Origin: an uncultured Gammaproteobacteria bacterium
GTDB taxonomy: Bacteria > Patescibacteriota > Patescibacteriia > UBA9934 > CAZDDW01
Length of the DNA: 64,000 nt
Direction of reading: 5' to 3'
NCBI GenBank assembly: GCA_964504365.1
Contig: CAZDDW010000002.1
Span: 53,246 to 117,245 of the forward strand
A model generated the notes under the pieces. It made no database searches, was not told the DNA's origin, and saw only the letters and a list, made by a program, of their open reading frames with translations. Positions 6,601 to 33,402 of the stretch are shown piece after piece. Within the stretch, counting starts at the first letter, position 1. Every line of letters starts with the position of its first letter. Position numbers and translations under genes: made by a program.

Positions 6601-6602
6601 TT

Positions 6603-6636: not shown

Positions 6637-6645
6637 AAATAAAGA

Positions 6646-6671: not shown

Positions 6672-6762
6672 TCTAGCAAGTCCGAGTACCTGATGCGCGC
6701 CAGCAAAAGTAAAAGACGCCACCCGCGGGGGTGACGTCGATGAGAAACGTGAAGGAACTGGT

Positions 6763-8517
6763 CTAGGCTTGGTCTGCCGGCTGTTCCGAACTGGCCTCGG
6801 CTTCCTTCTCGGCCGCAGGTGCCGGTTCGGAAGGCTTGGCCTCGGTCTCGGCACCACTGGAGTCCGGTGCTTCGGCCGCAGGCTTACGAGGCCTACGGGG
6901 CCGACGCCGACTTCGCTTGCGCGGTGCCGGCTCCTCGGAACCTTCCTCAGCCGCTGACTCGGCTTCGGCTTCGGCCCTGGCTTCCTGGATCCGATCGACC
7001 AGTTGGTCGACCTGTTCCGAATCCACCAGACACCTGGCCGCCTTGATCAAGACGGTCGCCCGGAAACCCATGATTCCGGGATGAACACGCCCAGCCCAAC
7101 CACCACGACGCACGGCCTTGTAGCCGGTGTCATGTCCGCGGTCGAGCTGATCGAAGCTCACACCGAGCATGAGCTCGAGCTTGGCCAGGATCGTATCGGC
7201 ATCGGCATCGTCCTCGAGACCCAGAACCGTCAAGGCCTGGTATCTCTCGGGAACGCCGCTACCACGAACACTGAAGAGGAATTCCCCCTTGCCAAGAGCC
7301 AGCTTGATCGCGATTGCCCGTGCTTCACGCAAGAGCGCCTTGCGCACCTTGCGTCCGTCGGACGAGCTCGGATCACCAGACCACCTTGCGCTGCGCATGG
7401 CCTGGAAAGCCACATCTGAGGCATGGTCTGCCTGAAGCTGCTCGGACTTGATGACCAGAGCCGCATCGAACAGATCAGCCACCTCACCCTTGCCAGCACT
7501 CATGGTCTTGCCGACCAGAGCCATGACGTAGATCTTCACACGACCGCCGTCAGGCTGGGGAATCCAAACCTGGTTGTTGTACTTGGTCAGACCTGTCATG
7601 ACCAGCTCACGCCGGGCATCCTCGATGACCTGCAAACGCTCTTTGCGCCCCTGGTCAGAACTCGGATCACCCGGGAAGCCAGCATTGATCATGACCTGGA
7701 AGACCGGATCGTCAGCGCCTGGATCTCGAACATCGCTCAAGGCCTTGGCCCGCGCATCGACTGCGTTCGAACTGGTCTTGTCCGATTCGGAATCGAGTCC
7801 GAACATTTCCCAGCAGCTCATGAACGTACCAGTGCGTGCCACGATCGATCCCGGGGGACAGATCAGGGCTTCGGCCTTGGACTCATCGATCTTGACCGTG
7901 CCATCGTTGAACTCGCCGGCATCGACCATCTGCGCAGTTGCCCGCGCAGTGGCGTGGATCAAGCCAGGGTGCATCACCTTGAACATGATCGGAACCTGGG
8001 AACGATCCTTGACCGCACCGGCCTCGATCTCGTCGTCGTAGTACGGGGCCTCGTTCTGAGGACCGCGCCAGAGAACCTCTGCACCACGGAAATCACCGAT
8101 CCAACGCTGACCCTTCTTGGTGAAAGCGACGTAAAGGAAGTTGCGGTCAACAACCTCACCATCCAGCGCACCCTCTTCGCCGAGCCAGGTATGCTCGAAC
8201 ATCGGCCACGCCAGACTGGTGTTCCCGCGCATCGCAGACGGCTTCACAGCCACGCAGATGATCGGCGCACCCAAGCGCACCAACAGCCTGGTCGGATCCG
8301 GAATGACCACCTCGAATGTCTGGCCGCCTTCCACAGGCGTGAACTGACCAAGCACTCTTCCGCGATACAATCCATCTTCTCCCGTGGTACCAGGACCGTC
8401 GCTGCCAAAGAAGACCTGACCGTAGGAAAGATCACTCTGCCGGAAACGGTGTCCCAGCGGATGAAAAACCTCTCTGTTGATCCTGATCATCTCTTGTCTG
8501 TACATTTCGTCACTCAT
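6763..8517 (-). CDS. Hypothetical 584-aa protein from high-GC islet 1, with an internal duplication and a Lys/Arg/Pro-rich C-terminal tail
   Basis: Long ORF in a ~62% GC region, with GGAGG 7 nt upstream of ATG. Two internal segments resemble each other (SDVRDPGADDPVFQVMINAGFPGDPSSDQGRKERL and SDVAFQAMRSARWSGDPSSSDGRKVRK). The C-terminus (PRKRSRRRPRRPRKPAAEAP, followed by an acidic stretch) looks like a histone-H1-like disordered tail. A hairpin plus TTTTACTTTTG terminator follows downstream on the minus strand (~6700-6740). Confidence 0.6.
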   Translation of the reverse strand: MSDEMYRQEMIRINREVFHPLGHRFRQSDLSYGQVFFGSDGPGTTGEDGLYRGRVLGQFTPVEGGQTFEVVIPDPTRLLVRLGAPIICVAVKPSAMRGNTSLAWPMFEHTWLGEEGALDGEVVDRNFLYVAFTKKGQRWIGDFRGAEVLWRGPQNEAPYYDDEIEAGAVKDRSQVPIMFKVMHPGLIHATARATAQMVDAGEFNDGTVKIDESKAEALICPPGSIVARTGTFMSCWEMFGLDSESDKTSSNAVDARAKALSDVRDPGADDPVFQVMINAGFPGDPSSDQGRKERLQVIEDARRELVMTGLTKYNNQVWIPQPDGGRVKIYVMALVGKTMSAGKGEVADLFDAALVIKSEQLQADHASDVAFQAMRSARWSGDPSSSDGRKVRKALLREARAIAIKLALGKGEFLFSVRGSGVPERYQALTVLGLEDDADADTILAKLELMLGVSFDQLDRGHDTGYKAVRRGGWAGRVHPGIMGFRATVLIKAARCLVDSEQVDQLVDRIQEARAEAEAESAAEEGSEEPAPRKRSRRRPRRPRKPAAEAPDSSGAETEAKPSEPAPAAEKEAEASSEQPADQA

Positions 8518-8624
8518 TGTTCGCCTCCATCTGCCTCTTGGGCAGTATTCGTGTTGTTCTGGTTAAAATGACCGTTGTCGTCCTTTTTATTAGACTGATC
8601 AGACTACCATAGTTTTTTGCCTTT

Positions 8625-8681
8625 GTCAAGCCTAAATAGCCTAATTAAGGCTTGACAGAACTGGTATTTTGTGTTAACTTA
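8625..8681. promoter_or_regulatory. Symmetric divergent promoter
   Basis: TGTCAAGCCT (8625-8634) and AGGCTTGACA (8648-8657) are reverse complements, and each arm contains a TTGACA -35 box. On the plus strand, TTGACA is followed by 18 nt and then TGtTAACTT. On the minus strand, TTGACA is followed by 17 nt and then TGgTAGTCT. Confidence 0.6.
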
Positions 8682-8722
8682 GGTTGTTATTAGCTCATTC
8701 ACACACTTACGGAGGACAGTAA

Positions 8723-9739
8723 ATGGTCCCTGCAGACGAACGAGAAACGATCGATGACGAGACTCAGATGGATATCAGGGTCGTAGAAGCGAGTATCAGC
8801 CCCTGGGTTGATGATCTACGAACCAATTTCCCTTACTGGCCGGATGAGGATGACGGTGAACAGCCACCAACGTTCACCCAGGCCAGGGAAGAGGACGCCG
8901 CGGATGAACGCTTCCGAGAGCTTTGCGATGATTCTGGTCTAGCTGCTGATCTGATCATCATCGTTCTGGAAGGGATCGATACGGACCTGGAAACCGATCC
9001 TGTGCCGGAAGACCTGTTCCAGGAAGCTCGGAATCGGATCGAGGCAGAAGACGACAGCCTCACCGTTCAGCTGATTGACATTGCTCTGCGCTACCTCTTG
9101 TACACGGATTCGAACAACGAAGACGACAACAGAAAACACGCAGCAGCAATCAAGGATGCCTTGAGTCAGCCGGAAGCATCAAAGGAGGCGAATGAACCTG
9201 CGAAAACCGCAGCTGAGCCGAAGACTCCGGCCAAGCCCGGGGTTCCACCCAAGCCTTCGATGCCTGGAGAAGGTGGTGCAGAAGGTGGTAGGCCCGGAGC
9301 TTTGCGGAAGACTGATGGTACGCAAGAGCAGCCTCCTCCTCCCGAGAAGACTCCACCGGAGGCAACTACTCGAACTACTCAGCCGGCAGAACCGCCACCA
9401 CCGACGCCCCCAGATGGCTCGAGCGATGACGACCTCAAGGCAGAGCCACGCTACGTAGAGCTGCTTGCAGCTGCACAGCGAAACATCACCAAAGCAAGAG
9501 CTGGAGAAGCTCCGGCTCAGCTCTGGCTGGATGTGACTGTGTCAGACTTGCGTAAGGGAACAGGCGTTGGTTCACGAACCCACCCCAACCCGATTTACGC
9601 AAGACTGGCTGCTGATGGGACGACCATCCGAACAGGCTTCGATCACAGGGACAAGAACGCCCGTGCCAGAAGCCTTCTGGTCCGAGAAATCCAGGCTCTG
9701 GTCACTCAGGCCGGCCTGAAGATCAACCGCCTGCGTTAG
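8723..9739 (+). CDS. Hypothetical acidic protein with a Pro-rich linker (islet 1)
   Basis: 338 aa with a GGAGGA SD site. The N-terminus is acidic, the middle has PPKP/PPPPTPP low-complexity sequence, and a C-terminal domain follows. A TGCCGCTCAGC...GCTGGGCGGCA hairpin lies downstream at ~9750-9780. Confidence 0.6.
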   Translation: MVPADERETIDDETQMDIRVVEASISPWVDDLRTNFPYWPDEDDGEQPPTFTQAREEDAADERFRELCDDSGLAADLIIIVLEGIDTDLETDPVPEDLFQEARNRIEAEDDSLTVQLIDIALRYLLYTDSNNEDDNRKHAAAIKDALSQPEASKEANEPAKTAAEPKTPAKPGVPPKPSMPGEGGAEGGRPGALRKTDGTQEQPPPPEKTPPEATTRTTQPAEPPPPTPPDGSSDDDLKAEPRYVELLAAAQRNITKARAGEAPAQLWLDVTVSDLRKGTGVGSRTHPNPIYARLAADGTTIRTGFDHRDKNARARSLLVREIQALVTQAGLKINRLR

Positions 9740-9868
9740 CAGGAACTCATTGCCGCTCAGCTCAGCTGGGCGGCATCTTAATTTCCATAAATTTTATACC
9801 CTTGATCTTTTTACGCCTTTGTTATACACTACGGGCGAAATTTTTAGGCTAGTGAATACATTTACTCT

Positions 9869-10195
9869 ATGAGTGAGGACGCAACCATATCGCAGATCCA
9901 AGATGCAGAAAAAGCTGCTGCAGATCGGATCCTTGAAGCAGAAAAAAGTGCTCAACAAACTATAAATCAGCTTGAGGACGGATATCAAGACAAGTTGTCA
10001 CAAGTGAAAGAAAGTCTTGATTCAGAACGAGGGCAAGTTGTAGAAAAAATCCAAAAACAAGCTACAGCCTTTAAAGAGGAGATTTGTGAACAATCAAAAA
10101 AAGAGATGACTGCGATGAAGAAGGATTCTGAAGGCAGAATCAGTTCAGCTGCTGGATACGTAAAAGATCAGTTTCTAGAATATGTCCGTCAGTAA
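9869..10195 (+). CDS. V/A-type ATP synthase peripheral-stalk subunit (G/H-like)
   Basis: A 108-aa charged coiled-coil protein that is the first gene of the V-type operon. Its size and position match ntpF/atpH. Confidence 0.5.
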   Translation: MSEDATISQIQDAEKAAADRILEAEKSAQQTINQLEDGYQDKLSQVKESLDSERGQVVEKIQKQATAFKEEICEQSKKEMTAMKKDSEGRISSAAGYVKDQFLEYVRQ

Positions 10196-17782: not shown

Positions 17783-18415
17783 ATGGCTAACGCACTAGGC
17801 GTCAACCCAACCCGACAAGAACTGCTAAAACTCAAGGTTAAACTTAAAACCTCTGAGCGTGGTTATAAGTTACTCAAAGACAAGCGTGATGGTTTGATGA
17901 AACAGTTCATGGAGATCATTCGTGAAGCCAAGGATCTGCGTGAAAAAGTTGAAGCTGATCTGTCAGTTGGATTTCAAGCTTACTTGTTTGCTTCTGCTAA
18001 GACTTCGCCAGATCTGTTGAAAAGCGCTTTCTTATTGCCTTCGATGAAAACTTATCTGCAGGCTGACGTGAAGAATGTCATGTCTGTGAACGTGCCAGTA
18101 TTCGAGTACAAGGAAGAAGGCGACTTTTTGTCTTATGGATTCAGTTTTACAGCCTCAGAGCTTGATACGGCGCTGAAGAGTTTCTCAGAAAGCTTGAAAG
18201 ATATGGTTCGTCTCGCTGAGGTAGAGCATAGCGCCAAGTTGCTAGCAGAAGAGATCGAAAAAACACGTCGACGAGTAAACGCGCTTGAATACGTCTTCAT
18301 TCCAAAGATGAAAGAAACAATCAAATACATCCAGGCCAAGCTAGCAGAACAAGAACGCGGAACGATTATCACACTGATGAAGGTCAAGGATATGTTGGTA
18401 GAACAGGAGGGATAA
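17783..18415 (+). CDS. ntpD: V/A-type ATP synthase subunit D
   Basis: The N-terminus MANALGVNPTRQELLKLKVKLKTSERGYKLLKDKRDGL is typical of subunit D. This is the last gene of the operon. Confidence 0.85.
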   Translation: MANALGVNPTRQELLKLKVKLKTSERGYKLLKDKRDGLMKQFMEIIREAKDLREKVEADLSVGFQAYLFASAKTSPDLLKSAFLLPSMKTYLQADVKNVMSVNVPVFEYKEEGDFLSYGFSFTASELDTALKSFSESLKDMVRLAEVEHSAKLLAEEIEKTRRRVNALEYVFIPKMKETIKYIQAKLAEQERGTIITLMKVKDMLVEQEG

Positions 18416-18429
18416 AATAGATTAAATAG

Positions 18430-18468
18430 GCGGGGTCCCTTGACCCCGCTTTTTGTTTATGCTAAGTT
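18430..18468 (+). terminator. Intrinsic terminator of the ATPase operon, fused to an islet promoter
   Basis: GCGGGGTC-cctt-GACCCCGC hairpin followed by TTTTTG. The TTGACC inside the 3' arm, followed by 17 nt and TGcTAAGTT, forms a promoter for the downstream islet gene. Confidence 0.7.
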
Positions 18469-18496
18469 CTGGCCAGGACATTGAAAGGAGACACTT

Positions 18497-19162
18497 GTGA
18501 AAATCGACGGAAACGAATTCGTTGTTGCTTCTTCTGACATCGGACGCATCAGAGCTGGGTACATCTTCATGCGCCGGGCTGAGCGAGAGGGCTGCCGGGT
18601 CGAAGACCTGGACAAGCTTCAGGTTCGTTTCCAAAACGGACCCGAGACAAGCTCGTATACCCAGGTGGAACTCCAGCACCTGCTCGACCTGATGGGCCAA
18701 TCTTGCAGCGAAACCGACGTCCTGCGTGAACTCGGGATCGTGCCCGGTTACCGCGGGCATCTGCCCCCGGCCTGGAAGGCCGCCTACCTCTACCGCGGTG
18801 ACCAGGAGTTCCTGCTCGGTGACATCTGGCTCGACGAGTCTGCTGTTTGCCGAATCGCCCGGCGTCTGCACAGCATGCAGCAGGACGAAGAAGAGCACTG
18901 CGTGACCGTTGTCCTGCGCGAGACCTTGCCCGAAGAACTCTTCGACAAGCCGGACCAACTCACGCCCGAACAGGTACGTGAGCATGCCGCCATCGTCATC
19001 AGGCATGGCGAAATCATCTTCAGCGTCCCGTCCCACCGTGACGGCTGGGGCCCGCGTGGATTCGGTGAGCTGGCCATCAGTGCACTGAATGGCAGCTTCC
19101 TGGCCCTACTCGAACACGCCAAGTTCACCTCCACCCGCCTGCACACGCCGGCAAGCTCCTAG
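18497..19162 (+). CDS. Hypothetical protein, paralog 1 of an islet-2 pair (GTG start)
   Basis: 221 aa in high-GC sequence, with an AAAGGAG SD 7 nt before GTG. It shares domain order and motifs with the next gene (…F(Q/E)NGP…Y..V.LQ.LLD.M..SC.E.D(V/I)LR…(I)VPG(Y/F)…). A hairpin plus T7 terminator lies at 19169-19195. Confidence 0.65.
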   Translation: MKIDGNEFVVASSDIGRIRAGYIFMRRAEREGCRVEDLDKLQVRFQNGPETSSYTQVELQHLLDLMGQSCSETDVLRELGIVPGYRGHLPPAWKAAYLYRGDQEFLLGDIWLDESAVCRIARRLHSMQQDEEEHCVTVVLRETLPEELFDKPDQLTPEQVREHAAIVIRHGEIIFSVPSHRDGWGPRGFGELAISALNGSFLALLEHAKFTSTRLHTPASS

Positions 19163-19254
19163 CACTTCAGCGACCACACTGGTCGCTTTTTTTATATCTT
19201 GACATAGCACTTAGTCCATGCTAAGTTCTGCTCAGCACCTTGAAAGGAGCGAAG

Positions 19255-19911
19255 ATGGAACCCACGCCAAACGGAGTTCACATTCTCGATACTGACATCG
19301 GCAATGTTTCTGCGCTAGACGTTTTCCGTCTCGACGCCGAGACCGAGCGTGAGCGCGACCTGGAGCACCCGGATCACATCCTGGTCACCTTCGAAAACGG
19401 CCCTGGGCCAGCTGAGTACGACCGTGTTGCTCTTCAGCTTCTGCTCGATCGCATGAGCATGTCCTGTGGTGAGGGCGACATCCTGCGCAAGATCAAGATC
19501 GTTCCTGGCTTCATGGGCATAACGTTTCCAGCCCACTGGGAGGACGTGGTCCTGTTCGATGGTAATGGCAATTACCTGGTCCACCCTGTCTCGCTCGACG
19601 AGGTCGCTGTGGTCCTTATCGCCAAGAGTCTGCATGACGAAAAGCTGTTCGGTGAGCGCCATGCCGTAGTCGTACTGCGTCGCTCAGACCTGCCCGAGGA
19701 CTGGAAGCCCGGTGATTCGATCGAGGCCGAGTTCATGATGAACACAGCCACCATCGTCATCAACCACAACAACGTCTACCTGCTTTCGTCTGGTGCCCAA
19801 CACTACAAGGCGATCAGCTTCGGTGACGTTCACATGGCCAAGCGCCAACAGCGTGACTCGCACTCCTTCACCATGTACACCTCGACCCGTTTGCGGCCGC
19901 CGATGCCGTAA
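19255..19911 (+). CDS. Hypothetical protein, paralog 2 of an islet-2 pair
   Basis: 219 aa with an AAAGGAG SD. The upstream leader ATGCTAAGTTCTG…TTGAAAGGAG is nearly identical to that of paralog 1. A CCCGC…GCGGG+T5 terminator lies at 19920-19940. Confidence 0.65.
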   Translation: MEPTPNGVHILDTDIGNVSALDVFRLDAETERERDLEHPDHILVTFENGPGPAEYDRVALQLLLDRMSMSCGEGDILRKIKIVPGFMGITFPAHWEDVVLFDGNGNYLVHPVSLDEVAVVLIAKSLHDEKLFGERHAVVVLRRSDLPEDWKPGDSIEAEFMMNTATIVINHNNVYLLSSGAQHYKAISFGDVHMAKRQQRDSHSFTMYTSTRLRPPMP

Positions 19912-19979
19912 CGCACACACCCGCCTCAGCGCGGGTTTTTAATTCGTGGAAAAGATGGGGATATTAAAAACAAAAACCC

Positions 19980-20008
19980 TTGACACGAATGCCTAGGATC
20001 GATACGCT
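19980..20008 (+). promoter_or_regulatory. Sigma70-like promoter (TTGACA-17-TACGCT) with no ORF downstream
   Basis: TTGACA is at 19980-19985 and TACGCT at 20003-20008. No ORF of 60 aa or more follows on either strand before the terminator at ~20232. Confidence 0.5.
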
Positions 20009-20015
20009 GGAAGTG

Positions 20016-20262
20016 AGCCGGGGATCGCGCTAGTTTAGTTAAGTTCAAGAGGGTAGGACTGTGAAAACAGAAACCGATCTGCGGGAGGAACAAAGCACTG
20101 AAAGAGACGGGGATCGCATAGGAAGCTATAAAGTCACTGCAACTCTACGAGTGTCATGACCTGATAAGGTACAGCCTTTCAAAGGGGGAAGACCCTGAAG
20201 AACACCTGGATTGGAGAACTCGGCTCAAACAAAAAACTGACCCTGCGGTCGGTTTTTTGTAA
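20016..20262 (+). ncRNA. Candidate ~245-nt small RNA (unclassified)
   Basis: Bounded by the promoter above and by a hairpin terminator ACTGACC-ctgc-GGTCGGT+TTTTTTGT at 20234-20262. The complementary ends GAGCCG (20017-20022) and CGGCTC (~20222-20230) can close a long stem. No coding potential was found. Confidence 0.4.
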
Positions 20263-20265
20263 TCT
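20228..20265. terminator. Bidirectional intrinsic terminator (A-run/hairpin/T-run)
   Basis: CAAACAAAAAACTGACCctgcGGTCGGTTTTTTGT reads as a hairpin with a U-run on both strands. It would serve the plus-strand sRNA and the minus-strand gene 20294-20611. A second hairpin GACAGGC-gtaa-GCCTGTC lies at 20270-20288. Confidence 0.6.
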
Positions 20266-20293
20266 GAGGGACCGACAGGCGTAAGCCTGTCAT

Positions 20294-20611
20294 TTAAGTT
20301 CCTTGCTCGACTCGCTGCAATGCATGTAACTCAGCGTTGAGCTGCTGAACACCAGGATGCTGATCAGTATAACTATAGCCTTTTAGCAAATCTCGATCAC
20401 CTGTAATACTGCGTCGAGCATCTTCAATTTTAGCTTTTCGTGTAGCTCCTTCAAGGCCTTCAAATCGCTGTGCAAACACGATCATGGCCTGCTGAATGGC
20501 TGCGCTGTCTAGTGTATCAGCCGAAACCATGTCTGGTTGTGATTCAACCTCAGGCACCATGCTGGCCGCAGCTTCTTTTTGAGCTGCTCGTTTACCAAAA
20601 AATTCTAACAT
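20294..20611 (-). CDS. Hypothetical 105-aa protein (islet 2)
   Basis: ORF with an upstream TTGACA-17-TAAGAT promoter on the minus strand at ~20640-20670. Confidence 0.45.
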   Translation of the reverse strand: MLEFFGKRAAQKEAAASMVPEVESQPDMVSADTLDSAAIQQAMIVFAQRFEGLEGATRKAKIEDARRSITGDRDLLKGYSYTDQHPGVQQLNAELHALQRVEQGT

Positions 20612-20698
20612 AAAGTATCAGTTAATTTTTGTTTATCTTAGGCTGTTTGGGGTCAAGTGTCAAGGGTGACTAAGAAGGGAATGACACACTTCAGTGTG

Positions 20699-21052
20699 TC
20701 ATTTGACAGACTTACGTCTGTCAGTCCCACAAAGAAACAACACCCCAATCACCAGTAACGGCAATGTCGTGACAAGTAAAGAGAACAGCATTTCTTCAAG
20801 ATTGAACAGGAAAATCGGGAGCATAGCCAGCAGCACAAACATCCACCCGCCGATACCCGGTCGTATCCAAGAAACCCATAATGCGCCCAGGATCAATAAC
20901 GTCGGGACGTTGTGCATGAATAACGCAACAATCATCTCGTACCAGTGATAATCTTCTGCAAAAACATCGAGGGACATTAGGGCAAAGAAGACGGCGAGCA
21001 AGATAACCAGAACTCGCGGAAGCCATTTGAGAACTTTGTTTAGCATACTCAT
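20699..21052 (-). CDS. Hypothetical small membrane protein (3-4 TM helices), islet 2
   Basis: Hydrophobic ~117-aa ORF. The start is reassigned to MSMLNK so that the upstream palindrome and the TTGTGTCAAG…TGcTAGAAT promoter become non-coding. Two perfect hairpins, ATGACACAC-ttca-GTGTGTCAT and TGACAGAC-ttac-GTCTGTCA, sit at and within the 3' end (20681-20723). Confidence 0.55.
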   Translation of the reverse strand: MSMLNKVLKWLPRVLVILLAVFFALMSLDVFAEDYHWYEMIVALFMHNVPTLLILGALWVSWIRPGIGGWMFVLLAMLPIFLFNLEEMLFSLLVTTLPLLVIGVLFLCGTDRRKSVK

Positions 21053-21067
21053 ACATTCTAGCACACC

Positions 21068-21093
21068 TGTCACGTCGCTCGCGAGCGACGTGA
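21068..21093. promoter_or_regulatory. Perfect 26-bp palindrome GTCACGTCGCTCG|CGAGCGACGTGAC between the -35 and -10 elements (candidate operator)
   Basis: Exact reverse-complement symmetry, read directly. It lies between divergent genes 20699-21052(-) and 21160-21489(+). Confidence 0.7.
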
Positions 21094-21159
21094 CTTGACA
21101 CAATCAACTTTATCTGATAAGTTACTTCCTTCTCAACGAAGACAAAGGAGGGAAGTACT

Positions 21160-21489
21160 TTGGAACTCAGACATCGAGAATTGGTGAGAATAAACCTGGA
21201 AGGCGCCACGATCATCGAGCATCGTCCGGATTGCCCAGTGGCTGGCAAGATCGACACCGCAAGCTTGGCTGCTGTGATCGGGATGAGCTGGAGACACCTC
21301 GAAGACGGAACGTGGCGTGACACCGTGTTCACGACCGATTCCTGGCGATTCGAGCGACAGGGCGACGTGATCTTCTTCCACCGCACCGAACCCAACGATG
21401 TGTCACGTGGTTTCGATCAGCCCGACCTCACGACCGATCTGTACACCATCGTCCTGCCGAACACGCGGGAAGTCAGCCCTGGCTGGTAG
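21160..21489 (+). CDS. Hypothetical 109-aa protein (TTG start), islet 2
   Basis: AAGGAGG SD 7 nt before TTG, high-GC codon usage, and a terminator at 21514-21538. Confidence 0.55.
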   Translation: MELRHRELVRINLEGATIIEHRPDCPVAGKIDTASLAAVIGMSWRHLEDGTWRDTVFTTDSWRFERQGDVIFFHRTEPNDVSRGFDQPDLTTDLYTIVLPNTREVSPGW

Positions 21490-21513
21490 GACCGTTTACC
21501 TCAGACTCCACTT

Positions 21514-21570
21514 GACCCACCTCGGGTCTTTTTCTTTTGGGTTGACAATTTGTGTAGATTCAAATATATT
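21514..21570 (+). promoter_or_regulatory. Terminator-promoter module copy 1
   Basis: GACCCacctcGGGTC hairpin, then TTTTTCTTTTG, then TTGACA (21543-21548), 16 nt, and TATATT. Confidence 0.7.
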
Positions 21571-21605
21571 AACGCTGGTTCCTGAACAAAATTACAGGAG
21601 AAATC

Positions 21606-21944
21606 ATGCTTCCAGGCAACCGGCCAACAGGAAGAAGAATGACAAAACAAGGTCCGCAAGAAGCCAGAAGACTCCCGGACCAAGTCAGCGGCCCTCTGCT
21701 GTACTCGTATCTCCAAGGCATAGCCCGCGCCATGACTGACGGGGCAGTATTGATCAACAGTACGACAACCACTTTCTCGCGTGCCAGCGTCATTTCTGTT
21801 CTCAAGGCACAGAACATCCATGAGAGTGACATCGCCGAGGCCATCACGTACTGCTTGGATAATGATCTACTCATCGAAGAACACGATGGCTTCCACATGA
21901 CCACCTTCGGGCTGACCAGTACTCGCCCCAAGCGCCGGTTATAG
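21606..21944 (+). CDS. Hypothetical small protein, paralog 1 of a tandem islet-2 pair (possible winged-helix DNA-binding fold)
   Basis: 112 aa. Its C-terminal ~75 aa align with the next gene: LLYSYLQGIARAMTDG…FSRASVISVLKAQNIHESDIAEAITYCLDNDLLIEEHDGFHMT against SLYSRLWDVATAMSAG…FPRASIVAVLQSMGIREERVERAIQYCLRNGLLEERDDGFHLV. Confidence 0.6.
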   Translation: MLPGNRPTGRRMTKQGPQEARRLPDQVSGPLLYSYLQGIARAMTDGAVLINSTTTTFSRASVISVLKAQNIHESDIAEAITYCLDNDLLIEEHDGFHMTTFGLTSTRPKRRL

Positions 21945-21994
21945 CAAAACCAATGGACACACACTGGGCCTAGCCCCATCTAGACCTAAATCTC

Positions 21995-22054
21995 GACCCG
22001 TAAACTGGGTCTTTTTTCTTTTGGGTTGACAAAATACGTGGAAATTGGTTTACT
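21995..22054 (+). promoter_or_regulatory. Terminator-promoter module copy 2
   Basis: GACCCgtaaactGGGTC hairpin, then TTTTTTCTTTTGGGTTGACAA, 17 nt, and TTTACT. Confidence 0.7.
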
Positions 22055-22093
22055 TGTCCCAGAACGATCATTCATACACGAAAGGGGCAACAA

Positions 22094-22438
22094 ATGCTCT
22101 CAGACAACTATCCCAATGAATGCAGGGAACGGCAGCAACCGCGACGAGACCCTCGGCCCAGGGGTCCCATGGTCGACAGCTTCTCGCTGTACTCTCGGCT
22201 GTGGGACGTAGCCACGGCCATGTCCGCAGGCGGCAAGGGGTTCCCCAGGGGAACCGAGATCGCTTTCCCACGCGCCAGCATCGTGGCCGTGCTCCAGTCT
22301 ATGGGTATTCGTGAAGAGCGAGTCGAACGGGCCATCCAGTACTGTCTGCGCAACGGCCTGCTCGAGGAGCGTGATGATGGTTTCCACCTGGTCCAGAGCG
22401 AGCTGTCGTCCTTCCGCATGACGATGCGCCGCATCTAG
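22094..22438 (+). CDS. Hypothetical small protein, paralog 2 of the tandem pair
   Basis: 114 aa with an Arg/Pro-rich N-terminus. The C-terminal domain is paralogous to 21606-21944. Confidence 0.6.
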   Translation: MLSDNYPNECRERQQPRRDPRPRGPMVDSFSLYSRLWDVATAMSAGGKGFPRGTEIAFPRASIVAVLQSMGIREERVERAIQYCLRNGLLEERDDGFHLVQSELSSFRMTMRRI

Positions 22439-22450
22439 ACCACACACCTC

Positions 22451-22510
22451 GACCCAACCCTGGGTCTTTTTCTTTTGGGTTGACAAACCGCGAGATGGAA
22501 GGTAAGTTCT
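22451..22510 (+). promoter_or_regulatory. Terminator-promoter module copy 3
   Basis: GACCCaaccctGGGTC hairpin, then TTTTTCTTTTGGGTTGACAA, 17 nt, and TAAGTT. Confidence 0.7.
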
Positions 22511-22526
22511 AGACAAGGAGGCCCTC

Positions 22527-22736
22527 ATGAGAGAACCGCAACCTGCAAGCGTGCTCCGAGCCTGCTTAGCAGCAAATCAAGGCTGCAGAATCGAATACTT
22601 CGATGATGGAGGATCGATCGAACTTCAGCCTAGATTTGTCCTGGAGGACATGCATGTCCGCGGTCGTACGTGCAAGCGCGGAACGCGTGTATCTGTTCCT
22701 TTATTCGAACCGATCAAGGGCGTCACTCCTCTCTAG
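22527..22736 (+). CDS. Hypothetical 69-aa protein (islet 2)
   Basis: AAGGAGG SD 6 nt before ATG. A GAGTCTTTAAAGGCTC+TTTTTCTTTTG terminator follows, running into the TGgTATAAT extended -10 of the helicase gene (~22745-22780). Confidence 0.5.
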   Translation: MREPQPASVLRACLAANQGCRIEYFDDGGSIELQPRFVLEDMHVRGRTCKRGTRVSVPLFEPIKGVTPL

Positions 22737-22871
22737 CACCACACCTGAGTCTTTAAAGGCTCTTTTTCTTTTGTGGTATAATGGGGCCGGAAAATAAGCT
22801 TGTCGCACGTGGCACGTCGCATGTCGTCTCCAGAACGACGCGCGACCTCCGACGCGCGACGCACACCACAT

Positions 22872-25820
22872 ATGCCCGACAACCTACTTGAAAACCTAAA
22901 TGAAGAGCAACTCCAAGCTGCAATGCACAAGGAAGGACCTCTTATGATTATTGCTGGCGCAGGAACGGGGAAGACTACTGTGATTACACAGCGTGTGGCC
23001 TGGTTGATCGAGCAGAAGCTAGCAGAACCAGACGAGGTTTTAGCATTAACGTTCACGGAAAAGGCAGCCACTGAAATGGAAGAGCGTGTCGATCGTTTGC
23101 TACCCATGGGTTATGTTGATCTTTGGATCTCTACGTTCCATGCTTTTTGCGAACGAGTGCTTCGTGACTACGGAGTTGAGATCGGGCTGTCACGAAATTT
23201 TAAACTATTATCTGAAATTGATACCTGGCTGCTGATGCGCCAGAATTTTGATAGGTTCGAACTGGACTATTATCGGCCTTTGGGAAATCAGACAAAATAC
23301 TTGAAATCATTGCTTCAACATTTTTCTCGAGCCAAGGACGAAGTGATAACACCTGAAGAGTATCTGAGGTTTGCTGAGGAGCAGAAAGCGAGCCTGGATA
23401 CAAAGACATCAAACGACGAAGCAACGACTGAAGTAGCTCGGCTTGAAGAGCTGGCTAATGCGTATCACACGTACCAACAGATTTTGCTTGAGAATGACGC
23501 CATGGACTTTGGTGATCTGATAATGTACACATTGCACCTGCTTCAGAAGCGCCCGAAGATCCTAAAGGAACTTCGAGACAAATTTAAGTACGTGCTAGTA
23601 GATGAGTTTCAAGATACCAACTGGGCGCAATACGAATTAATCAAATTACTTGCTGCTCCGAAAAACAATGTTACGGTTGTTGGAGATGATGATCAGTCAA
23701 TTTATAAATTTCGTGGTGCTTCGCTGTCAAACATTCTGCAATTCGAAGTTGACTATCCAGACGCGACGCAGGTTGTGCTGACCAAGAACTACCGCACAGT
23801 GCAATCGATCTTGGACCATGCCTATAACTTTATTCAAAAAAACAATCCGAACCGACTCGAGACTCAACCGCGGGATAAACCGTTATCAAAGCAACTTGTG
23901 GCACATCGCGAAGAAGCTGGGCTAGTCGAGCACATGCACTTTAAAACTTTGGATCTGGAAGTTGAGGGTGTGGCTGATCGGATTCTTGAATTAAAAAAAC
24001 AATATCCAGATGCAGACTGGTCTGACTTTGGAATCCTGGTTCGAGCAAATGATAGCGCGAACAATTTCTTGTCTGCACTAGAACGCCGCGGTATTCCATA
24101 TCAGTTCCTGGCCCTGCGTGGTCTATACACGAAACCGATAGTTCTGGATCTTTTGTCATATATGCACGTAATCGACAATCCATACGATAGCCCTAGCTTT
24201 TATCGAATCCTAACGCATCCGATGCTGGATATCGCACACGAGGATCTAACGAAGATTAATTTCGAAGCATATAAAAAAGGCCGTTCAACTTTTGAGATCC
24301 TGCAGTCAGCAAAGTCAATCACAGGAATGAACGAGGAAACGTATCAGAAAATCGATGCTTTGTTATCACTACTTGCAGACCTAGCACAAGAAGCTAAGAC
24401 AAAGCCCGTGACCGAAATGGTCGTAACAATCATGCAAAAATCTGGGATATTAAAGTACGCGCAAACATTGCCAGAGCAAGATGAACACGATGCGTTTAGA
24501 TATTTACATCAGTTCTTTGAGCGAGTGAAACGATTCGAAGCACGGGCAGACCACAAGGCACTGAAAAACTTTTTGTTTGAGTTCAAGTTCGAACGCGATG
24601 CTGGAGAAGAGGGAAGTCTGCAGTTTGATATTGAGTCTGGACCGGACATGGTCAAGTTAATGACCGTGCATGGATCCAAAGGCCTGGAGTTTCGTTTCGT
24701 GTTCGTGGTCAACATGATTGATCAACGCTTCCCAACAATCCGTCGCAAGGATCCAATTCCATTACCTGACGATTTGGTTAAAGAAAAAGTTCCTGAAGGT
24801 GATGTCCACCTGGAAGAAGAGCGGCGTTTGTTTTATGTCGCGATCACGCGCGCCAAAGAAGGTTTGTTCTTAACTTCAGCCGAAGATTACGGCGGCGTGC
24901 GCAAACGCAAATTATCGCGCTTTATGCACGAGCTAGAAATTGTCGACGATAAAGCACTCACCCCAAACGAATCCGTCGGCCCATTCGAAGATAATCGGGA
25001 AAATGTACCGACCAGGACAAATGTCCGAAATGTTGTGTATACGATTCCGAAGCATTTTAGCTTTACGCAATTAGCTGCTTTTGCTACTTGTCCTTTGCAA
25101 TATAAGTTTGCTCATCTGCTCAAGATTCCTGTATTCGGTAAATACCAAATGTCGTATGGAAAAACCATGCACAATACATTGCAAGAGTTTTTCAGGGTTT
25201 GGATTGAACGACAGAATGCTCCGCAGCAGAATCTATTCGGAGACGCAGGTGATTCACCAATCGATCCTGTACCTGTATCATCAGATGAACTCACAAAAAT
25301 CTACGAAGAACAATGGATCGACGACTGGTATCCAAACAATAAGGTTCGCGAAGAATATAAACAAAAAGGACTAGATACGTTTAAGGACTACTGGAAGCAG
25401 CTCAAAACTGAACCGCCGAAACCTAATCAACTAGAAATAGGATTCACTCTCAAGATCGATGACCTGGTTCTTAAGGGTCGGATAGACCGCATCGATGATA
25501 TCGAGGGTGGGGTAGAGATTATCGACTACAAGACAGGAAAAGCAAAAGAGAAACTAAGCAAGGATGACAAAAGACAGCTCTTGATCTACCAGATCGCAGC
25601 TGTTGAATGTCTTGGTCTTGTTCCAAAAAAGTTGACTTATCACTACTTAGACAACAATACAACGGTCTCATTCTTGGGCACACCAAAAGAACTTGAAGGG
25701 TTGAAAACCGATCTGCTCGCAGCTTTAGAAAAAATCAAAGAAAGCAACTTCAACGCCACCCCAGGATTCAATTGCCGCTTCTGCGACTTCGCTGATATCT
25801 GTGAATTTAGGAAACTATAA
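22872..25820 (+). CDS. UvrD/PcrA-type SF1 helicase fused to a C-terminal Cas4/AddB-like Fe-S PD-(D/E)xK nuclease
   Basis: Walker A AGAGTGKT and helicase motifs (DEFQDTN, VGDDDQSIY, VHGSKGLEF). The C-terminus has a nuclease core (IDRIDD…IIDYKTGK…YQ) with a Cys set (C…CRFCDFADIC). The start is taken at MPDNLL, because the 72-nt GC-rich extension upstream has GACGCGCGAC direct repeats and looks like junction sequence. Confidence 0.85.
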   Translation: MPDNLLENLNEEQLQAAMHKEGPLMIIAGAGTGKTTVITQRVAWLIEQKLAEPDEVLALTFTEKAATEMEERVDRLLPMGYVDLWISTFHAFCERVLRDYGVEIGLSRNFKLLSEIDTWLLMRQNFDRFELDYYRPLGNQTKYLKSLLQHFSRAKDEVITPEEYLRFAEEQKASLDTKTSNDEATTEVARLEELANAYHTYQQILLENDAMDFGDLIMYTLHLLQKRPKILKELRDKFKYVLVDEFQDTNWAQYELIKLLAAPKNNVTVVGDDDQSIYKFRGASLSNILQFEVDYPDATQVVLTKNYRTVQSILDHAYNFIQKNNPNRLETQPRDKPLSKQLVAHREEAGLVEHMHFKTLDLEVEGVADRILELKKQYPDADWSDFGILVRANDSANNFLSALERRGIPYQFLALRGLYTKPIVLDLLSYMHVIDNPYDSPSFYRILTHPMLDIAHEDLTKINFEAYKKGRSTFEILQSAKSITGMNEETYQKIDALLSLLADLAQEAKTKPVTEMVVTIMQKSGILKYAQTLPEQDEHDAFRYLHQFFERVKRFEARADHKALKNFLFEFKFERDAGEEGSLQFDIESGPDMVKLMTVHGSKGLEFRFVFVVNMIDQRFPTIRRKDPIPLPDDLVKEKVPEGDVHLEEERRLFYVAITRAKEGLFLTSAEDYGGVRKRKLSRFMHELEIVDDKALTPNESVGPFEDNRENVPTRTNVRNVVYTIPKHFSFTQLAAFATCPLQYKFAHLLKIPVFGKYQMSYGKTMHNTLQEFFRVWIERQNAPQQNLFGDAGDSPIDPVPVSSDELTKIYEEQWIDDWYPNNKVREEYKQKGLDTFKDYWKQLKTEPPKPNQLEIGFTLKIDDLVLKGRIDRIDDIEGGVEIIDYKTGKAKEKLSKDDKRQLLIYQIAAVECLGLVPKKLTYHYLDNNTTVSFLGTPKELEGLKTDLLAALEKIKESNFNATPGFNCRFCDFADICEFRKL

Positions 25821-30186: not shown

Positions 30187-32103
30187 ATGTTTTTTCGTAA
30201 AAACAACAACGAACCTAACCCTTTTGGAATCGAGACCAGTCAATTTAAAAACCTTCAGATGGAAAACCTGGAGGACAAATCAACGATTTCTCAGACAGTG
30301 CTTGACCAAGAGGTTGGTGGTAAATCCGGGGGCTTTCTTGGATTAACTATTTCTTTGCGCAGAATGAAACTTTGTTTAATCCTGACCCTTTTTGTGATTG
30401 GAATTTTATTTGCTAAAGCAGCACACTTACAAATTATCCAAGGAAGTCAGTACCGCTCGCTAGCAGAAGGAAACCGGATACGAATTGAATCCATACAAGC
30501 AGCTCGTGGTGTTGTTTACGATCGCAACCAGAATCTACTTATAGAAAACGTGCCCGCATTTACTGTTACTTTGACAGATGGAGATATCCCGGATAGCGAA
30601 CGAGAGCAAGTGCTAGATGACCTGGCTGATATCTTGAACATGCCTCGTGGTGAAATAGAAGCCTTGCTTGAGGAATATAAGGACGTGCCTTATGAACCAG
30701 TACCAATTGCTCGTGGTGTTGGCCATGAGCGGGCAATGGCGATTGCTTCTCAGCAACAAACCTTACCAGGTACAGATCTGACTTTATCGACTTTGCGATC
30801 CTATGCAACTGATGCTGCCCGATCTTTGTCACATGTTCTAGGTTTCTTGGGCAAGATTTCACCAGATGAAATCGATACGCTGTCTGCTGAGTACCGTCGT
30901 ACGGACGAGATTGGTAAGCAGGGAATCGAGGAAGCTTATGAAACAGAGCTGCGTGGGCAATCCGGACAAAAGGTTGTTGAAGTTGATGCCCGTGGATTTG
31001 AAGCAGCTATTATTACAGAAAAAGCTCCTGTTGATGGAACAAATATTACTTTATCGATCGATGCAGACCTTCAGTCTTTCATAGAAATGCGCTTGTTGGA
31101 AAATCAAGAAACCTCAGGAGACAACAAAGCAGCTGTGGTAGCACTGGATCCGAATAACGGGGAAGTGTTGGCTTTGGTTAGTCTGCCTACTTTTGACAGC
31201 AATGATTTCTCAGGTGGAATTGATAGTGCTGCTTACGGTTTGTTGATCAATGATGAAAGCCAACCTTTATTTCCGAGGGCAATCTCGGGCGAATATCCTT
31301 CTGGTTCAACCTTCAAGCCGATCGTTGCTGCCGCAGCTTTGTCCGAAGGCCTGATTAGTGAGTACACCAGCTTTTTATCCGAAGGCGGGATTGCGATTTC
31401 TTCTTGGTTTTTCCCGGACTGGAAAGCTGGTGGGCATGGCATGACTGATGTGCGCAAGGCAATAGCTGAATCTGTTAATACCTTCTTTTACATTATCGGT
31501 GGTGGTCTGGATGATTTTGTTGGACTGGGCGTAGCTAGGATCACTAAGTATGCCGCCTACTTTGGACTAGGATCACTAACCGGTATTGAGATAGCTGGCG
31601 AAGCTGAAGGATTTTTGCCGTCAAAAGAATGGAAAATGGAATACAAGAACGAGCGCTGGTATGTTGGTGATACATATCATTTAGCTATTGGGCAGGGTGA
31701 TATCTTAGTTACACCGCTTCAGATTGCTAGCATGACTTCTGTTTTTGCAAATGGTGGTATGTTGTATCAGCCGCATTTGTTGCACGATGCTGAATCAGAA
31801 GGATCTAACGTAAACGAGAAGGTCGGTGCCGACTCAATCCGAATCGTCAGCGAGGGAATGCGACAAGCTGTTACTGAAGGATCGGCTCGCTATCTGCTAA
31901 CTGTGACTGAACCAGTGGCTGGCAAAACCGGAACCGCACAAACCGGAGGTGACAAAGATTATCACGCCTGGTTCACTGGCTTTGGCCCATACGAAGACCC
32001 AGAAATAGTTTTAACAATTCTAGTTGAGGAAGGCGGCGGCGGCTCAGAGGTCTCTGTACCAATCGCCCGAGATATATTCAACTGGTGGTTTGCTAATCGA
32101 TAG
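30187..32103 (+). CDS. mrdA: Penicillin-binding protein 2 (elongasome transpeptidase)
   Basis: All three active-site motifs are present: SxxK (SGSTFKP), SxN (ESVNTFF) and KTG (KTGTAQ). An N-terminal TM helix is present. It is in the mreBCD operon. Confidence 0.9.
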   Translation: MFFRKNNNEPNPFGIETSQFKNLQMENLEDKSTISQTVLDQEVGGKSGGFLGLTISLRRMKLCLILTLFVIGILFAKAAHLQIIQGSQYRSLAEGNRIRIESIQAARGVVYDRNQNLLIENVPAFTVTLTDGDIPDSEREQVLDDLADILNMPRGEIEALLEEYKDVPYEPVPIARGVGHERAMAIASQQQTLPGTDLTLSTLRSYATDAARSLSHVLGFLGKISPDEIDTLSAEYRRTDEIGKQGIEEAYETELRGQSGQKVVEVDARGFEAAIITEKAPVDGTNITLSIDADLQSFIEMRLLENQETSGDNKAAVVALDPNNGEVLALVSLPTFDSNDFSGGIDSAAYGLLINDESQPLFPRAISGEYPSGSTFKPIVAAAALSEGLISEYTSFLSEGGIAISSWFFPDWKAGGHGMTDVRKAIAESVNTFFYIIGGGLDDFVGLGVARITKYAAYFGLGSLTGIEIAGEAEGFLPSKEWKMEYKNERWYVGDTYHLAIGQGDILVTPLQIASMTSVFANGGMLYQPHLLHDAESEGSNVNEKVGADSIRIVSEGMRQAVTEGSARYLLTVTEPVAGKTGTAQTGGDKDYHAWFTGFGPYEDPEIVLTILVEEGGGGSEVSVPIARDIFNWWFANR

Positions 32104-32166
32104 CTTGACTTTTAAACTAAGGATTGGTAGTTTTTAACTACCGTACACTCAAACTGGGGGTTTGAA

Positions 32167-32754
32167 ATGACAGGGCAGAGAAGCCTTACTGACATGATTC
32201 GTGAAGACCTGGTGTGGGAACCGAGCGAGGATGAGTTGACCGAACTGATGGCCAACAGCGAACCGATCCGGATTGATCCCGTACGTCAGGCGGCTTTCGC
32301 ACAAAAGATGCGGCAGCGCTGCGAGCTTGCTCGTCAAGACCAACCACTACTCCAGCGAGCACGCCGGCTGTTGACCGAGTATCTGGACGATCTGACCCGC
32401 CCATTCGCGGAAATGACCTTTGTTAACTTCCTCGAGCTGCTCAGGCGCGATCTGGGGATAGATGACGAGCGTCTGGCTCGAGTGTTCCTTGCCAGCCCTG
32501 CACTGTTCGCAGAACTCAAGGAGCCGTACGTCTACGACATCCACGGCCTGGCCAACCTGCTCGGAGGTCTAGGCATGGATCCATGTGACTTCGAAACCTC
32601 GATGCGCATCCCGGATCGTATCGAGCACTGGGACCTGGCTCCACTGACCTGGATCACGAACCCGGAACCTCCGACCACATATCTCAACCGGCCGCACTGG
32701 CTGTATCAGCTCGAAGAGGTACTGCACCGTCGGCAGATGGAGCTTGCCTCATGA
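32167..32754 (+). CDS. Hypothetical 195-aa protein (islet 3)
   Basis: High-GC ORF with a GGGGG SD. Confidence 0.5.
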   Translation: MTGQRSLTDMIREDLVWEPSEDELTELMANSEPIRIDPVRQAAFAQKMRQRCELARQDQPLLQRARRLLTEYLDDLTRPFAEMTFVNFLELLRRDLGIDDERLARVFLASPALFAELKEPYVYDIHGLANLLGGLGMDPCDFETSMRIPDRIEHWDLAPLTWITNPEPPTTYLNRPHWLYQLEEVLHRRQMELAS

Positions 32755-32939
32755 CCAGGGGTGCACGACGACGTCCCACCCCAGACGAACTCGAAGAGCG
32801 CGAACGAACTGCTCGCGGCATCGAACGCTTTGTGGAACAGCTGCCACCTGGCAGAGCTCGTGACACGATTGCCAAGCTGGCTGATATCGCTCGCAGCAAG
32901 AACCGTCGCGCCTTGCATCCGCACAGCTGCTCTCACTGA
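32751..32939 (+). CDS. Hypothetical 62-aa Arg-rich protein, translationally coupled to the preceding gene (ATGA overlap)
   Basis: The start overlaps the stop of 32167-32754. A CCCCACAcctGTGGGG+CTTTTTCTTTT terminator follows at ~32943-32972. Confidence 0.4.
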   Translation: MTRGARRRPTPDELEERERTARGIERFVEQLPPGRARDTIAKLADIARSKNRRALHPHSCSH

Positions 32940-33018
32940 CACCCCACACCTGTGGGGCTTTTTCTTTTCACAAATTTATGCTAAGCTCAGCGTGCTGTTT
33001 TACAAAAGGGAGGACGCA

Positions 33019-33402
33019 ATGTTCGATTGGAAACAGGCAGAAAAAGTAGCCAAACGTCTGGAGCAAGAACCAGAGCACACCGAAAGCCTGACTTGGATGA
33101 CAAAATTCATTGCCGGTAGCACGGTAATGGAATGGCTCATCTGTGTCATGATGATGACCACACTCAGTTTTGGTGTCGCGAACATTGGTCAAACAGTTGG
33201 CCTCAACGAGCATATCAGTCTTGTACTGGTCTTCCTGATCGGACTGACCTGTCTGTACTGCTGGGGCTCTGTGGCCTTTAGTAAGTTCACTCTGGTCTTT
33301 TTCGATCTCAAGCGCTGGCGCTGGTCGTCTTCGTTCTTTCCCTTGGCTGCATACTGCCTGATCTTCGGTATTTTCATGTCTCTTAGAGAATCATCTGGAT
33401 AG
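33019..33402 (+). CDS. Hypothetical membrane protein (3-4 TM helices), islet 3
   Basis: AAGGGAGG SD 5 nt before ATG. An ATGCTAAGCT-type promoter lies upstream. Confidence 0.5.
   Translation: MFDWKQAEKVAKRLEQEPEHTESLTWMTKFIAGSTVMEWLICVMMMTTLSFGVANIGQTVGLNEHISLVLVFLIGLTCLYCWGSVAFSKFTLVFFDLKRWRWSSSFFPLAAYCLIFGIFMSLRESSG

Follow-up and report, generated by a model that had tools for sequence, protein, structure and literature searches.

Repeated terminator-promoter-like junctions around an old pair of predicted winged-helix paralogues in a Patescibacteria chromosome

Intrinsic terminators joined to sigma-70-type promoters are found in compact bacterial and phage genomes, where a GC-rich stem-loop and U-tract 10 to 50 nt after a stop codon come first and TTGACA, a spacer of 17 nt, a -10 element (TAnnnT or extended), a Shine-Dalgarno (SD) sequence, and an ATG come next. 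Autonomous promoter-gene-terminator units inserted between conserved genes are known from phages as morons, and integron cassette arrays consist of short genes on one strand that are separated by a repeated imperfect palindrome of 60 to 140 nt with RYYYAAC/GTTRRRY cores, most of the cassettes being promoterless. A literature search on the terminators and promoters of Patescibacteria found no paper, and to our knowledge almost nothing has been established experimentally about the transcription signals of these bacteria. Here we describe a repeated junction at positions 21514 to 22782 of a 64,000-nt stretch of DNA (contig CAZDDW010000002.1 of assembly GCA_964504365.1, positions 53,246 to 117,245 of the forward strand; the whole of this stretch is called the window, and position 1 is its first nucleotide), which is a chromosomal piece of an uncultured, Uhrbacteria-like Patescibacteria bacterium. 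The copies of the junction bracket two small paralogous genes, g1 and g2, and we read them, with a probability of roughly 70%, as putative intrinsic terminators fused to sigma-70-type promoters that have been kept by selection and possibly also by gene conversion. Compared with the terminators and promoters described above, the stems are unusually short (5 to 6 bp), the same junction is reused three to four times within 1.3 kb and recurs in related species, and the T-tract ends 3 nt before the -35 box, at the position of an UP element.

The module has the layout GACCC-loop-GGGTC, followed by TTTTTCTTTTGGG and TTGACAA, and is found on the forward strand at 21514-21548, 21995-22032, and 22451-22486. 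Copy 1 consists of the hairpin GACCC-ACCTC-GGGTC (21514-21528; -7.0 kcal/mol), a T-tract with GGG (21529-21541), and the -35 box TTGACA (21542-21547). In copy 2, the hairpin GACCCG-TAAAC-TGGGTC (21995-22011; -7.2 kcal/mol) is followed by a T-tract with an extra T, by GGG, and by TTGACA at 22026-22031, and in copy 3, the hairpin GACCCA-ACCC-TGGGTC (22451-22466) is followed by the T-tract with GGG and by TTGACA at 22480-22485. A degenerate copy 4 (22747-22782, forward strand) contains the hairpin GAGTCT-TTAA-AGGCTC (22747-22762), the T-tract TTTTTCTTTTG (22763-22773), and an extended -10 element without a -35 box. A terminator scan recovered the hairpin with its T-tract at all four sites, each stem having 5 to 6 pairs, 3 to 4 of them G-C, and being followed by TTTTTCTTTT. 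The hairpins lie 24, 50, 12, and 10 nt after the stop codons of ORF109 (an open reading frame [ORF] of 109 codons), g1, g2, and g3, respectively, and all are codirectional with these genes.

A repeat search returned the module as a 33-nt direct repeat in three copies (21516-21548, 22000-22032 with one extra T, and 22454-22486), the 16-nt core of which, GGGTCTTTTTCTTTTG, has a fourth copy at 22758-22773 that reads GGCTCTTTTTCTTTTG. The 25-mer GGGTCTTTTTCTTTTGGGTTGACAA matched three times at up to 3 mismatches, compared with 0.00 expected from 100 shuffles, and gave no further match in the 64 kb; it is identical in copies 1 and 3 and differs in copy 2 by one additional T. The pattern TCTTTTTCTTTTG brought in the fourth copy, and no copy of the module was found outside 21514-22782 within the window, in keeping with the expectation that it would not be common in the chromosomal backbone.

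Each hairpin and T-tract is followed by a -10 element, an SD sequence, and a start codon. Copy 1 continues into the promoter-like sequence TTGACA-17-TATATT (21542-21570, with the -10 element at 21565-21570), which scored 11/12 in a promoter scan; copy 2 continues into TTGACA-17-TTTACT, where an extended -10 element, TGgTTTACT, was read from the sequence at 22046-22054; and copy 3 continues into TTGACA-17-TAAGTT (-10 element at 22503-22508), ahead of g3, a 69-amino-acid gene that is unrelated to g1 and g2. Copy 4 leads into TGGTATAAT, with the extended -10 element TGgTATAAT at 22774-22782, ahead of a gene for a UvrD/PD-(D/E)XK helicase. The original prediction, made from the nucleotide sequence alone, had described three near-identical modules, each a hairpin and T-tract fused to a -35 box, the third of them preceding a different 69-amino-acid gene, and a degenerate fourth copy feeding the helicase promoter, and the scans bear this anatomy out. 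The pattern TTGAC-N18-TAAGTT has four matches in the window, compared with 0.04 expected, at 18440, 19199, 21095, and 22480; all are on the forward strand, lie no more than 4 kb apart inside the variable stretch described below, and stand ahead of an ORF with a strong SD sequence. Winged-helix homologues in other genomes are preceded by TTGAAA-17-TAGGTT or TAGTTT, and the -10 sequences suggest TAnnTT as the -10 box of this lineage.

The resemblance of the modules had been explained by a recent tandem duplication of an entire cassette of gene and regulatory sequence, in which case the copies would be alike because they are young. The layout is indeed tandem, with a period of 454 to 484 nt, and the bracketed genes g1 (21606-21944, forward strand; 112 amino acids; SD AGGAG 5 nt before the ATG) and g2 (22094-22438, forward strand; 114 amino acids) are paralogous, with 38% amino acid identity over 108 residues (E value, 2e-18); the homology, which had been placed in the C-terminal ~75 residues, runs from end to end. 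The coding DNA, however, is only 51% identical and the third codon positions only 44% identical in a codon alignment, with ~1.2 to 1.5 synonymous (dS) and ~0.65 nonsynonymous (dN) substitutions per site by the Nei-Gojobori and LWL85 methods. A self dot plot of 21400-22900 (k = 9) showed the off-diagonal signal that had been anticipated at the modules and elsewhere only isolated 9-mers at about their chance number. In pairwise comparisons of the four intergenic regions, the alignment breaks just before the hairpin, within the loop, and immediately past TTGACAA; neither the 5' leaders nor the spacers, -10 boxes, loops, or 3' untranslated regions of the units can be aligned, and only ~35 nt per unit are conserved. 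Given this coding divergence, the dS values, and the unalignable surroundings, the g1/g2 duplication is an old one, after which the ~35-nt junction was kept or homogenized; the divergence of everything but this junction, together with the fact that g2 resembles an orthologue from another species more closely than it resembles g1, refutes a recent duplication. By our estimate, a neutral 25-nt stretch at a dS of ~1.3 would have a chance of ~1e-10 of staying identical, so the junction has been kept by selection or homogenized and is not young. The contigs of the same population (L122 to L129) are at least 99.97% identical except for L125; they are clonal, without variants in unit number, and therefore offer no polymorphism by which selection could be separated from gene conversion.

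The closest branch of the g1/g2 family to the window (P0004/P0027) lies in the syntenic locus of another genome, and g2 is its orthologue. The gene order on the P0004 contig is a DUF7670 gene on the opposite strand, one winged-helix gene, a gene for a 157-amino-acid protein, the UvrD/PD-(D/E)XK helicase gene, two small genes, mreB, and mreC. L116, a 1,085-bp contig of this branch, shares 72% of its nucleotides with the window over the DUF7670 gene and 68.5% over the winged-helix gene. The product of the latter is nearer to g2 than to g1 (local BLOSUM scores, 210 and 125, respectively), g1 having diverged further of the two paralogues. Right after the stop codon of this g2 orthologue stands GACCCAAACTGGGTCTTTTTCTTTTT (putative terminator, GACCCAAACTGGGTCTTTTTCTTTT), which matches copy 3 in 24 of 26 positions; the next TTGACA follows 23 nt further on and is not fused to the hairpin. 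The presence of this terminator-like sequence behind the orthologue argues that the hairpin and T-tract derive from an ancestral g2 terminator and that g2 is probably the ancestral copy. The long start of g2 is backed by the N-terminal sequence MLxxNxP that is common to g1, g2, and P0027.

The junction was also found in contigs L118 to L121, which carry a g3 homologue (P0033) with 80% amino acid and 81% nucleotide identity. In L118, GACCCAGTCCTGGGTCTTTTTCATTTAGGTTGACAA-N17-TAAGTT precedes the g3 homologue and GACCCAACTCGGGTCTTTTTTCTTGACT-N17-TATAGT follows it, the upstream gene is a 74-amino-acid Cys-rich ORF, and no winged-helix gene is present on the contig. The counterpart of copy 4 has the stem GGGGTG-GTGCAG-CACCCC, followed by ATTTTTTATTTG and by the same TGGTATAATGGGGCCG. 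Since the junction flanks the g3 homologue among different neighbors, it is not tied to the g1/g2 duplication, and it is a lineage-wide building block of the locus rather than a by-product of that duplication. The view that it is private to the g1/g2 pair does not hold, because the terminator half occurs in L116 and the fused junction occurs in L118. L118 also contains three copies of a ~55-nt double-hairpin repeat, ACACCCTTTAGGGTGTTACCGCGATAACGACCTAAAGGTCGTCATTCCTACAA, at 10-60, 955-1008, and 2178-2230, two of them at the contig ends; the window lacks this repeat, which resembles an intergenic repeat dispersed in the genome of L118.

The loops of copies 1 to 3 vary in sequence and in length (5, 7, and 6 nt between GACCC and GGGTC) while the stems are intact, and in copy 4 the pairing is retained as GAGTC/GGCTC through a C-G to G-C swap and one G-U pair. 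This loop variation, the compensatory change in copy 4, and the different stem in L118 argue for a hairpin that acts as RNA rather than for a site in duplex DNA, and the copies would be minimal terminators at best. An alternative outer pairing, TCGACCC/GGGTTGA, appeared in minimum-free-energy folds of copies 2 and 3 and was treated as incidental, because it can form only after the U-tract has been transcribed and copy 4 lacks the same form. No Rfam family matched the window at its gathering score, and a match to s2m, the sole one within 21000-23000 at an Rfam E value of ≤1, was attributed to chance.

The g1 and g2 proteins had been guessed to be winged-helix-like, and an AlphaFold2 model built with a 25-sequence alignment agrees (pLDDT, 83.7). 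The predicted fold is a winged helix with the topology H1-b-H2-H3-b-hairpin-H4, consisting of helix 29-43, a β bridge at 58, helices 60-69 and 74-86, strands 90-93 and 96-99, and a C-terminal helix, 101-113, with a disordered basic N-terminal tail of ~28 residues ahead of H1. This topology up to the β hairpin is shared with small winged-helix proteins, such as the N-terminal domains of MarR, GntR, and DtxR, CggR, RuvB domain III, and the RecX repeats, from which the window proteins differ in that the domain stands alone and has the disordered basic tail and one extra C-terminal helix. Nearly all of the top 50 Foldseek matches in the PDB were winged-helix structures, including RuvB domain III, the CggR DNA-binding domain, PrfA/Clr, DtxR/MntR, and GntR, with probabilities of up to 0.99 but with weak E values (at least 0.026) and TM scores of 0.3 to 0.47; a viral structure library returned the same sort of generic neighbors. 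Scattered subthreshold Pfam matches were to MarR_2, RecX_HTH1, MCM5_C, and HemN_C. It is a reasonable inference from the predicted fold and the charge that g1 and g2 bind DNA.

An exhaustive profile search of 1.84 billion proteins found 26 representatives of the family, ~90 to 125 amino acids long save for one weak match to a 674-amino-acid protein. One member is labeled as a Patescibacteria group bacterium, and the family, which has no significant sequence or profile match to described winged-helix proteins, is a rare orphan seen so far only in Patescibacteria-type contigs (~26 clusters). In other genomes, as read from the sequence, each member stands by itself in a chromosomal context and would be transcribed separately; the member in L002 adjoins the gene for ribosomal protein S9, and that in L111 to L115 lies between oxidoreductase and epimerase genes.

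With DNA-binding-type proteins predicted from the bracketed genes, the module could mainly be a protein-binding site, i.e., an operator or activator site by which g1 and g2 would coregulate their own genes, g3, and the helicase gene. Such a site could be the inverted repeat GACCC/GGGTC or the direct repeat GGGTC-N10-GGGTT immediately before the -35 box. Among 6 copies in 3 species the stem sequence does not vary, the exact conservation of the T-tract and GGG exceeds what a generic terminator would call for, the proteins have basic tails, and the position of the site, about -40 to -70, is one used by class I activators. Against this stands the varying spacing of the half-sites (the 5, 7, and 6 nt given above), which is rarely tolerated by dimeric winged-helix binders and is fine for RNA hairpins. 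Moreover, L118 has two copies of the junction and no winged-helix gene on the contig, the hairpin in L116 does not adjoin a -35 box, and the family members in L002, L111, and L114 have no junction-type motif upstream. We regard a mainly protein-binding function as unlikely.

The copies lie in a ~4.4-kb interval between a V-type ATPase operon and the helicase gene (18416-22871), which is built of single-gene units and has a GC content of 52 to 56% in 1-kb windows and of up to 62% in g2, compared with ~43% elsewhere in the window. Domain scans identified the V-type ATPase operon and genes for MetRS, ThiI, MreB, PBP2, and an Asp/Asn-type tRNA synthetase. The helicase is 69% identical to that of the metagenome-assembled genome (MAG) chromosome OZ246408.1 and 60 to 61% identical to those of Candidatus Uhrbacteria MAGs, and the remaining matches in a genome scan with the helicase were to Patescibacteria/Parcubacteria. 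The order ATP synthase-helicase-mreB-mreC is kept across related genomes, unlike the content of the ATPase-to-helicase interval, which differs among them; 18416-22871 is thus a lineage-variable, GC-rich stretch of single-gene transcription units. The module and any member of the winged-helix family were absent from all 80 related helicase loci, which had been gathered by the scan with the helicase.

This variability invites the view that the junction is a recombination substrate, at which homologous recombination or gene conversion would duplicate, remove, or exchange units in a promoter-equipped cassette array of integron-like layout without an integrase. The gene content differs (ORF109, g1, g2, and g3 in the window, the 74-amino-acid Cys-rich ORF and g3 in L118, and the winged-helix and 157-amino-acid genes in P0004), copies within one genome are more alike than orthologous copies are (copies 1 and 3 differ at 0 of 25 positions, copy 3 and its L118 orthologue at 2 of 25), and a second tandem paralogue pair lies next door. 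As in integron arrays, short genes on one strand are separated by a repeated imperfect palindrome and their content varies among relatives. In contrast to these arrays, the repeat is ~35 nt long, each unit has its own promoter-like sequence, the module as read from the sequence lacks RYYYAAC/GTTRRRY (attC-type) cores, and those ORFs near the array that were scanned include no gene for an integrase or other recombinase. Recombination is further disfavored by the identical core of only ~25 to 35 nt, which is short for efficient homologous recombination, by the lack of copies elsewhere in the 64 kb or in the 80 related helicase loci, and by the clonal population contigs with their constant number of units. 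As the main explanation of the junction, we consider recombination quite improbable.

The units might instead belong to a dispersed small repeat, resembling repetitive extragenic palindromic (REP) sequences or miniature inverted-repeat transposable elements (MITEs), or to a mobile element or prophage. They resemble phage morons in being self-contained promoter-gene-terminator-like units of deviant base composition, GC-rich against the 43% backbone, that lie between conserved genes and vary in presence among relatives. Unlike morons, they are chromosomal and share one junction sequence, and 8 local proteins had no PHROG match; on both sides lie housekeeping genes (V-ATPase, helicase, MreBC, and PBP2) whose synteny is conserved. 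The 20-mer TTTTTCTTTTGGGTTGACAA was found in 23 metagenomic and 2 viral contigs, at first sight favoring a mobile element, but these 25 contigs are unrelated in context and gene content and none carries a homologue of any window protein. The 20-mer recurs at unrelated hairpin/promoter junctions (L103:12025, L102:4075, L088:1465, and others), for example between genes for a CsoR-type repressor and a P-type ATPase, where TATAAT follows after 17 nt, and where a TnpB element ends; coding repeats were also among the contexts. A T-run with GGG and TTGACAA therefore arises convergently and does not mark this element, and a widespread mobile element was rejected. The exact 25-mer had no match in 185,579 species genomes, and a dispersed or mobile origin is very unlikely.

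We favor the reading of the module as a junction between consecutive single-gene units, in which a 5- to 6-bp GC-rich RNA hairpin with an interrupted U-tract would end the upstream transcript as an intrinsic terminator and, 3 nt after the T-tract, the consensus -35 box TTGACA would begin the next sigma-70-type promoter. The T-rich tract may double as an UP-like element. g1 and g2 would be old tandem paralogues of a family of small basic-tailed winged-helix proteins, and the near-identity of the junctions would follow because hardly any single change is tolerated in a stem of 5 bp, in a U-tract, or in a -35 box, with gene conversion between the copies possibly adding to it. Several observations weigh against this reading. 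The hairpins are weak (-5.2 to -8.2 kcal/mol across the four sites), and copies 1 to 3 fold no better than shuffled sequences (z scores of -0.3 to -1.0 in 41- to 44-nt contexts). Copies 1 to 3 share the same interrupting C and GGG, which is not obviously explained by selection for generic terminator and promoter function; nor does such selection obviously explain why copies 1 and 3 are more similar to each other than copy 3 is to its L118 orthologue. Termination and initiation are read from consensus alone, the fold matches are below significance (E values of at least 0.026; TM scores of 0.37 to 0.47), and the winged-helix proteins had no Pfam, NCBIfam, PHROG, or PDB sequence match past threshold. 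That the copies agree exactly in the interrupted T-tract and GGG is a residual puzzle, for which selection and gene conversion are indistinguishable with these data.

The first unit of the forward-strand array is ORF109 (21160-21489), which follows a promoter-like site, TTGACA-N17-TAAGTT (21095-21123, forward strand; one of the four TTGAC-N18-TAAGTT matches), and has a TTG start 7 nt after AAAGGAGGG and a GC content at third codon positions of 0.71. Library scans found no homologue and no family for it. In L125, from the same population, ORF109 contains a 19-nt frameshifting deletion (window positions 21340-21358; L125:6291), and given this frameshift ORF109 may be either a dispensable gene or no genuine gene. 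A loopless perfect 26-bp palindrome, GTCACGTCGCTCG|CGAGCGACGTGAC (21069-21094), lies between the divergent DUF7670 gene and ORF109, where it abuts the -35 box TTGACA of ORF109 and is a candidate operator.

g3 (22527-22736, forward strand; SD AAGGAGG 6 nt before the ATG) is an orphan, for which public contigs from the same population carry a gene call as well. A 14-nt match equidistant from the start codons raised the possibility that g3 is a frameshifted third paralogue; this was rejected, no frame of 22487-22760 matching the profile of the winged-helix family. Nor did g3 show similarity to the next gene after the winged-helix gene of L116.

Downstream, the array is followed by a conserved gene that encodes a UvrD-type helicase with a C-terminal PD-(D/E)XK nuclease by Pfam (22872-25820, forward strand), the true start of which, ATG 22872, was set by alignment to relatives. 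Its leader (22783-22871) is ~89 nt long with a GC content of 64%, contains the direct repeat CGACGCGCGAC at 22836 and 22850, has no evident SD sequence ahead of the ATG, and is missing in the closest relative, L012. The motif CCNGAAC(G/A)A was seen in the 5' leaders of g1 (21582), g2 (22058), the helicase gene (22829), and the g2 orthologue P0027 (L116:495), possibly by chance, as ~4 chance 9-mer repeats are expected per 1.5 kb.

A second tandem pair of orphan paralogues (18497-19162 and 19240-19911, forward strand) encodes proteins of 221 and 223 amino acids with 36% identity over 225 residues and no Pfam, PHROG, or NCBIfam match. Each of these genes has its own hairpin and T-run fused to or overlapping a -35 box, along with the -10 element TAAGTT, so that the fused terminator/-35 design recurs at 18428-18468 and 19169-19227. 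The leaders of the pair share ATGCTAAGTTCTG...TTGAAAGGAG.

Between this pair and ORF109 lies a conserved noncoding unit of ~250 to 290 nt (19975-20265, forward strand), which is found at the same variable locus in three species (also L118:1093-1383 and L012:8562-8819) and has a promoter-like TTGACA site at 19980 and an end with a hairpin and T-run at 20238-20262. RNAalifold on the three sequences gave 74 pairs, 16 of them with compensatory changes, and a long closing stem, GAGCCGGG/CUCGGCUC; the L118 copy has a 43-nt insertion in one terminal loop. The unit matched no Rfam family at the gathering score or at an E value of ≤10 and is possibly an unannotated structured RNA.

Five GC-rich islands (6600-10000, 18400-20000, 21100-22870, 32100-33400, and 52400-55300) stand out in the window, at 50 to 60% compared with ~43% in the backbone. 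No Pfam family was found in those of their larger ORFs that were scanned; in the island at 21100-22870, the scanned ORFs were the small ones only (109 to 114 and 69 amino acids). Island ORFs often have promoter-like sites of the TTGACA type, e.g., TTGACA-17-TAACTT at 8652, and the relative L006 likewise has a GC-rich gene upstream of its helicase gene.

If, as we think unlikely, the conserved junction were the boundary of a recombination-driven cassette array at a Patescibacteria hot spot or a shared operator of the winged-helix paralogues, its significance would be larger. The hot spot would be fixed between the ATPase operon and the helicase gene, with each cassette carrying its own promoter, and identical junctions would allow the duplication, loss, and exchange of small-gene units; as an operator, the junction would let the winged-helix paralogues coregulate the array and the downstream helicase-nuclease. 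Under the favored reading of fused terminators and promoters, the locus adds one more case of element types that are already known, plus a small winged-helix family that is new, and beyond the following points its gene organization is ordinarily bacterial. Four related terminator/promoter junctions would be available here as a compact, natural series, with more next door and with built-in variation in loops, spacers, and -10 types. An unnamed, group-specific family of predicted winged-helix proteins sits in a variable locus beside a conserved helicase-nuclease, and identical regulatory repeats around paralogues do not imply that a duplication is recent.

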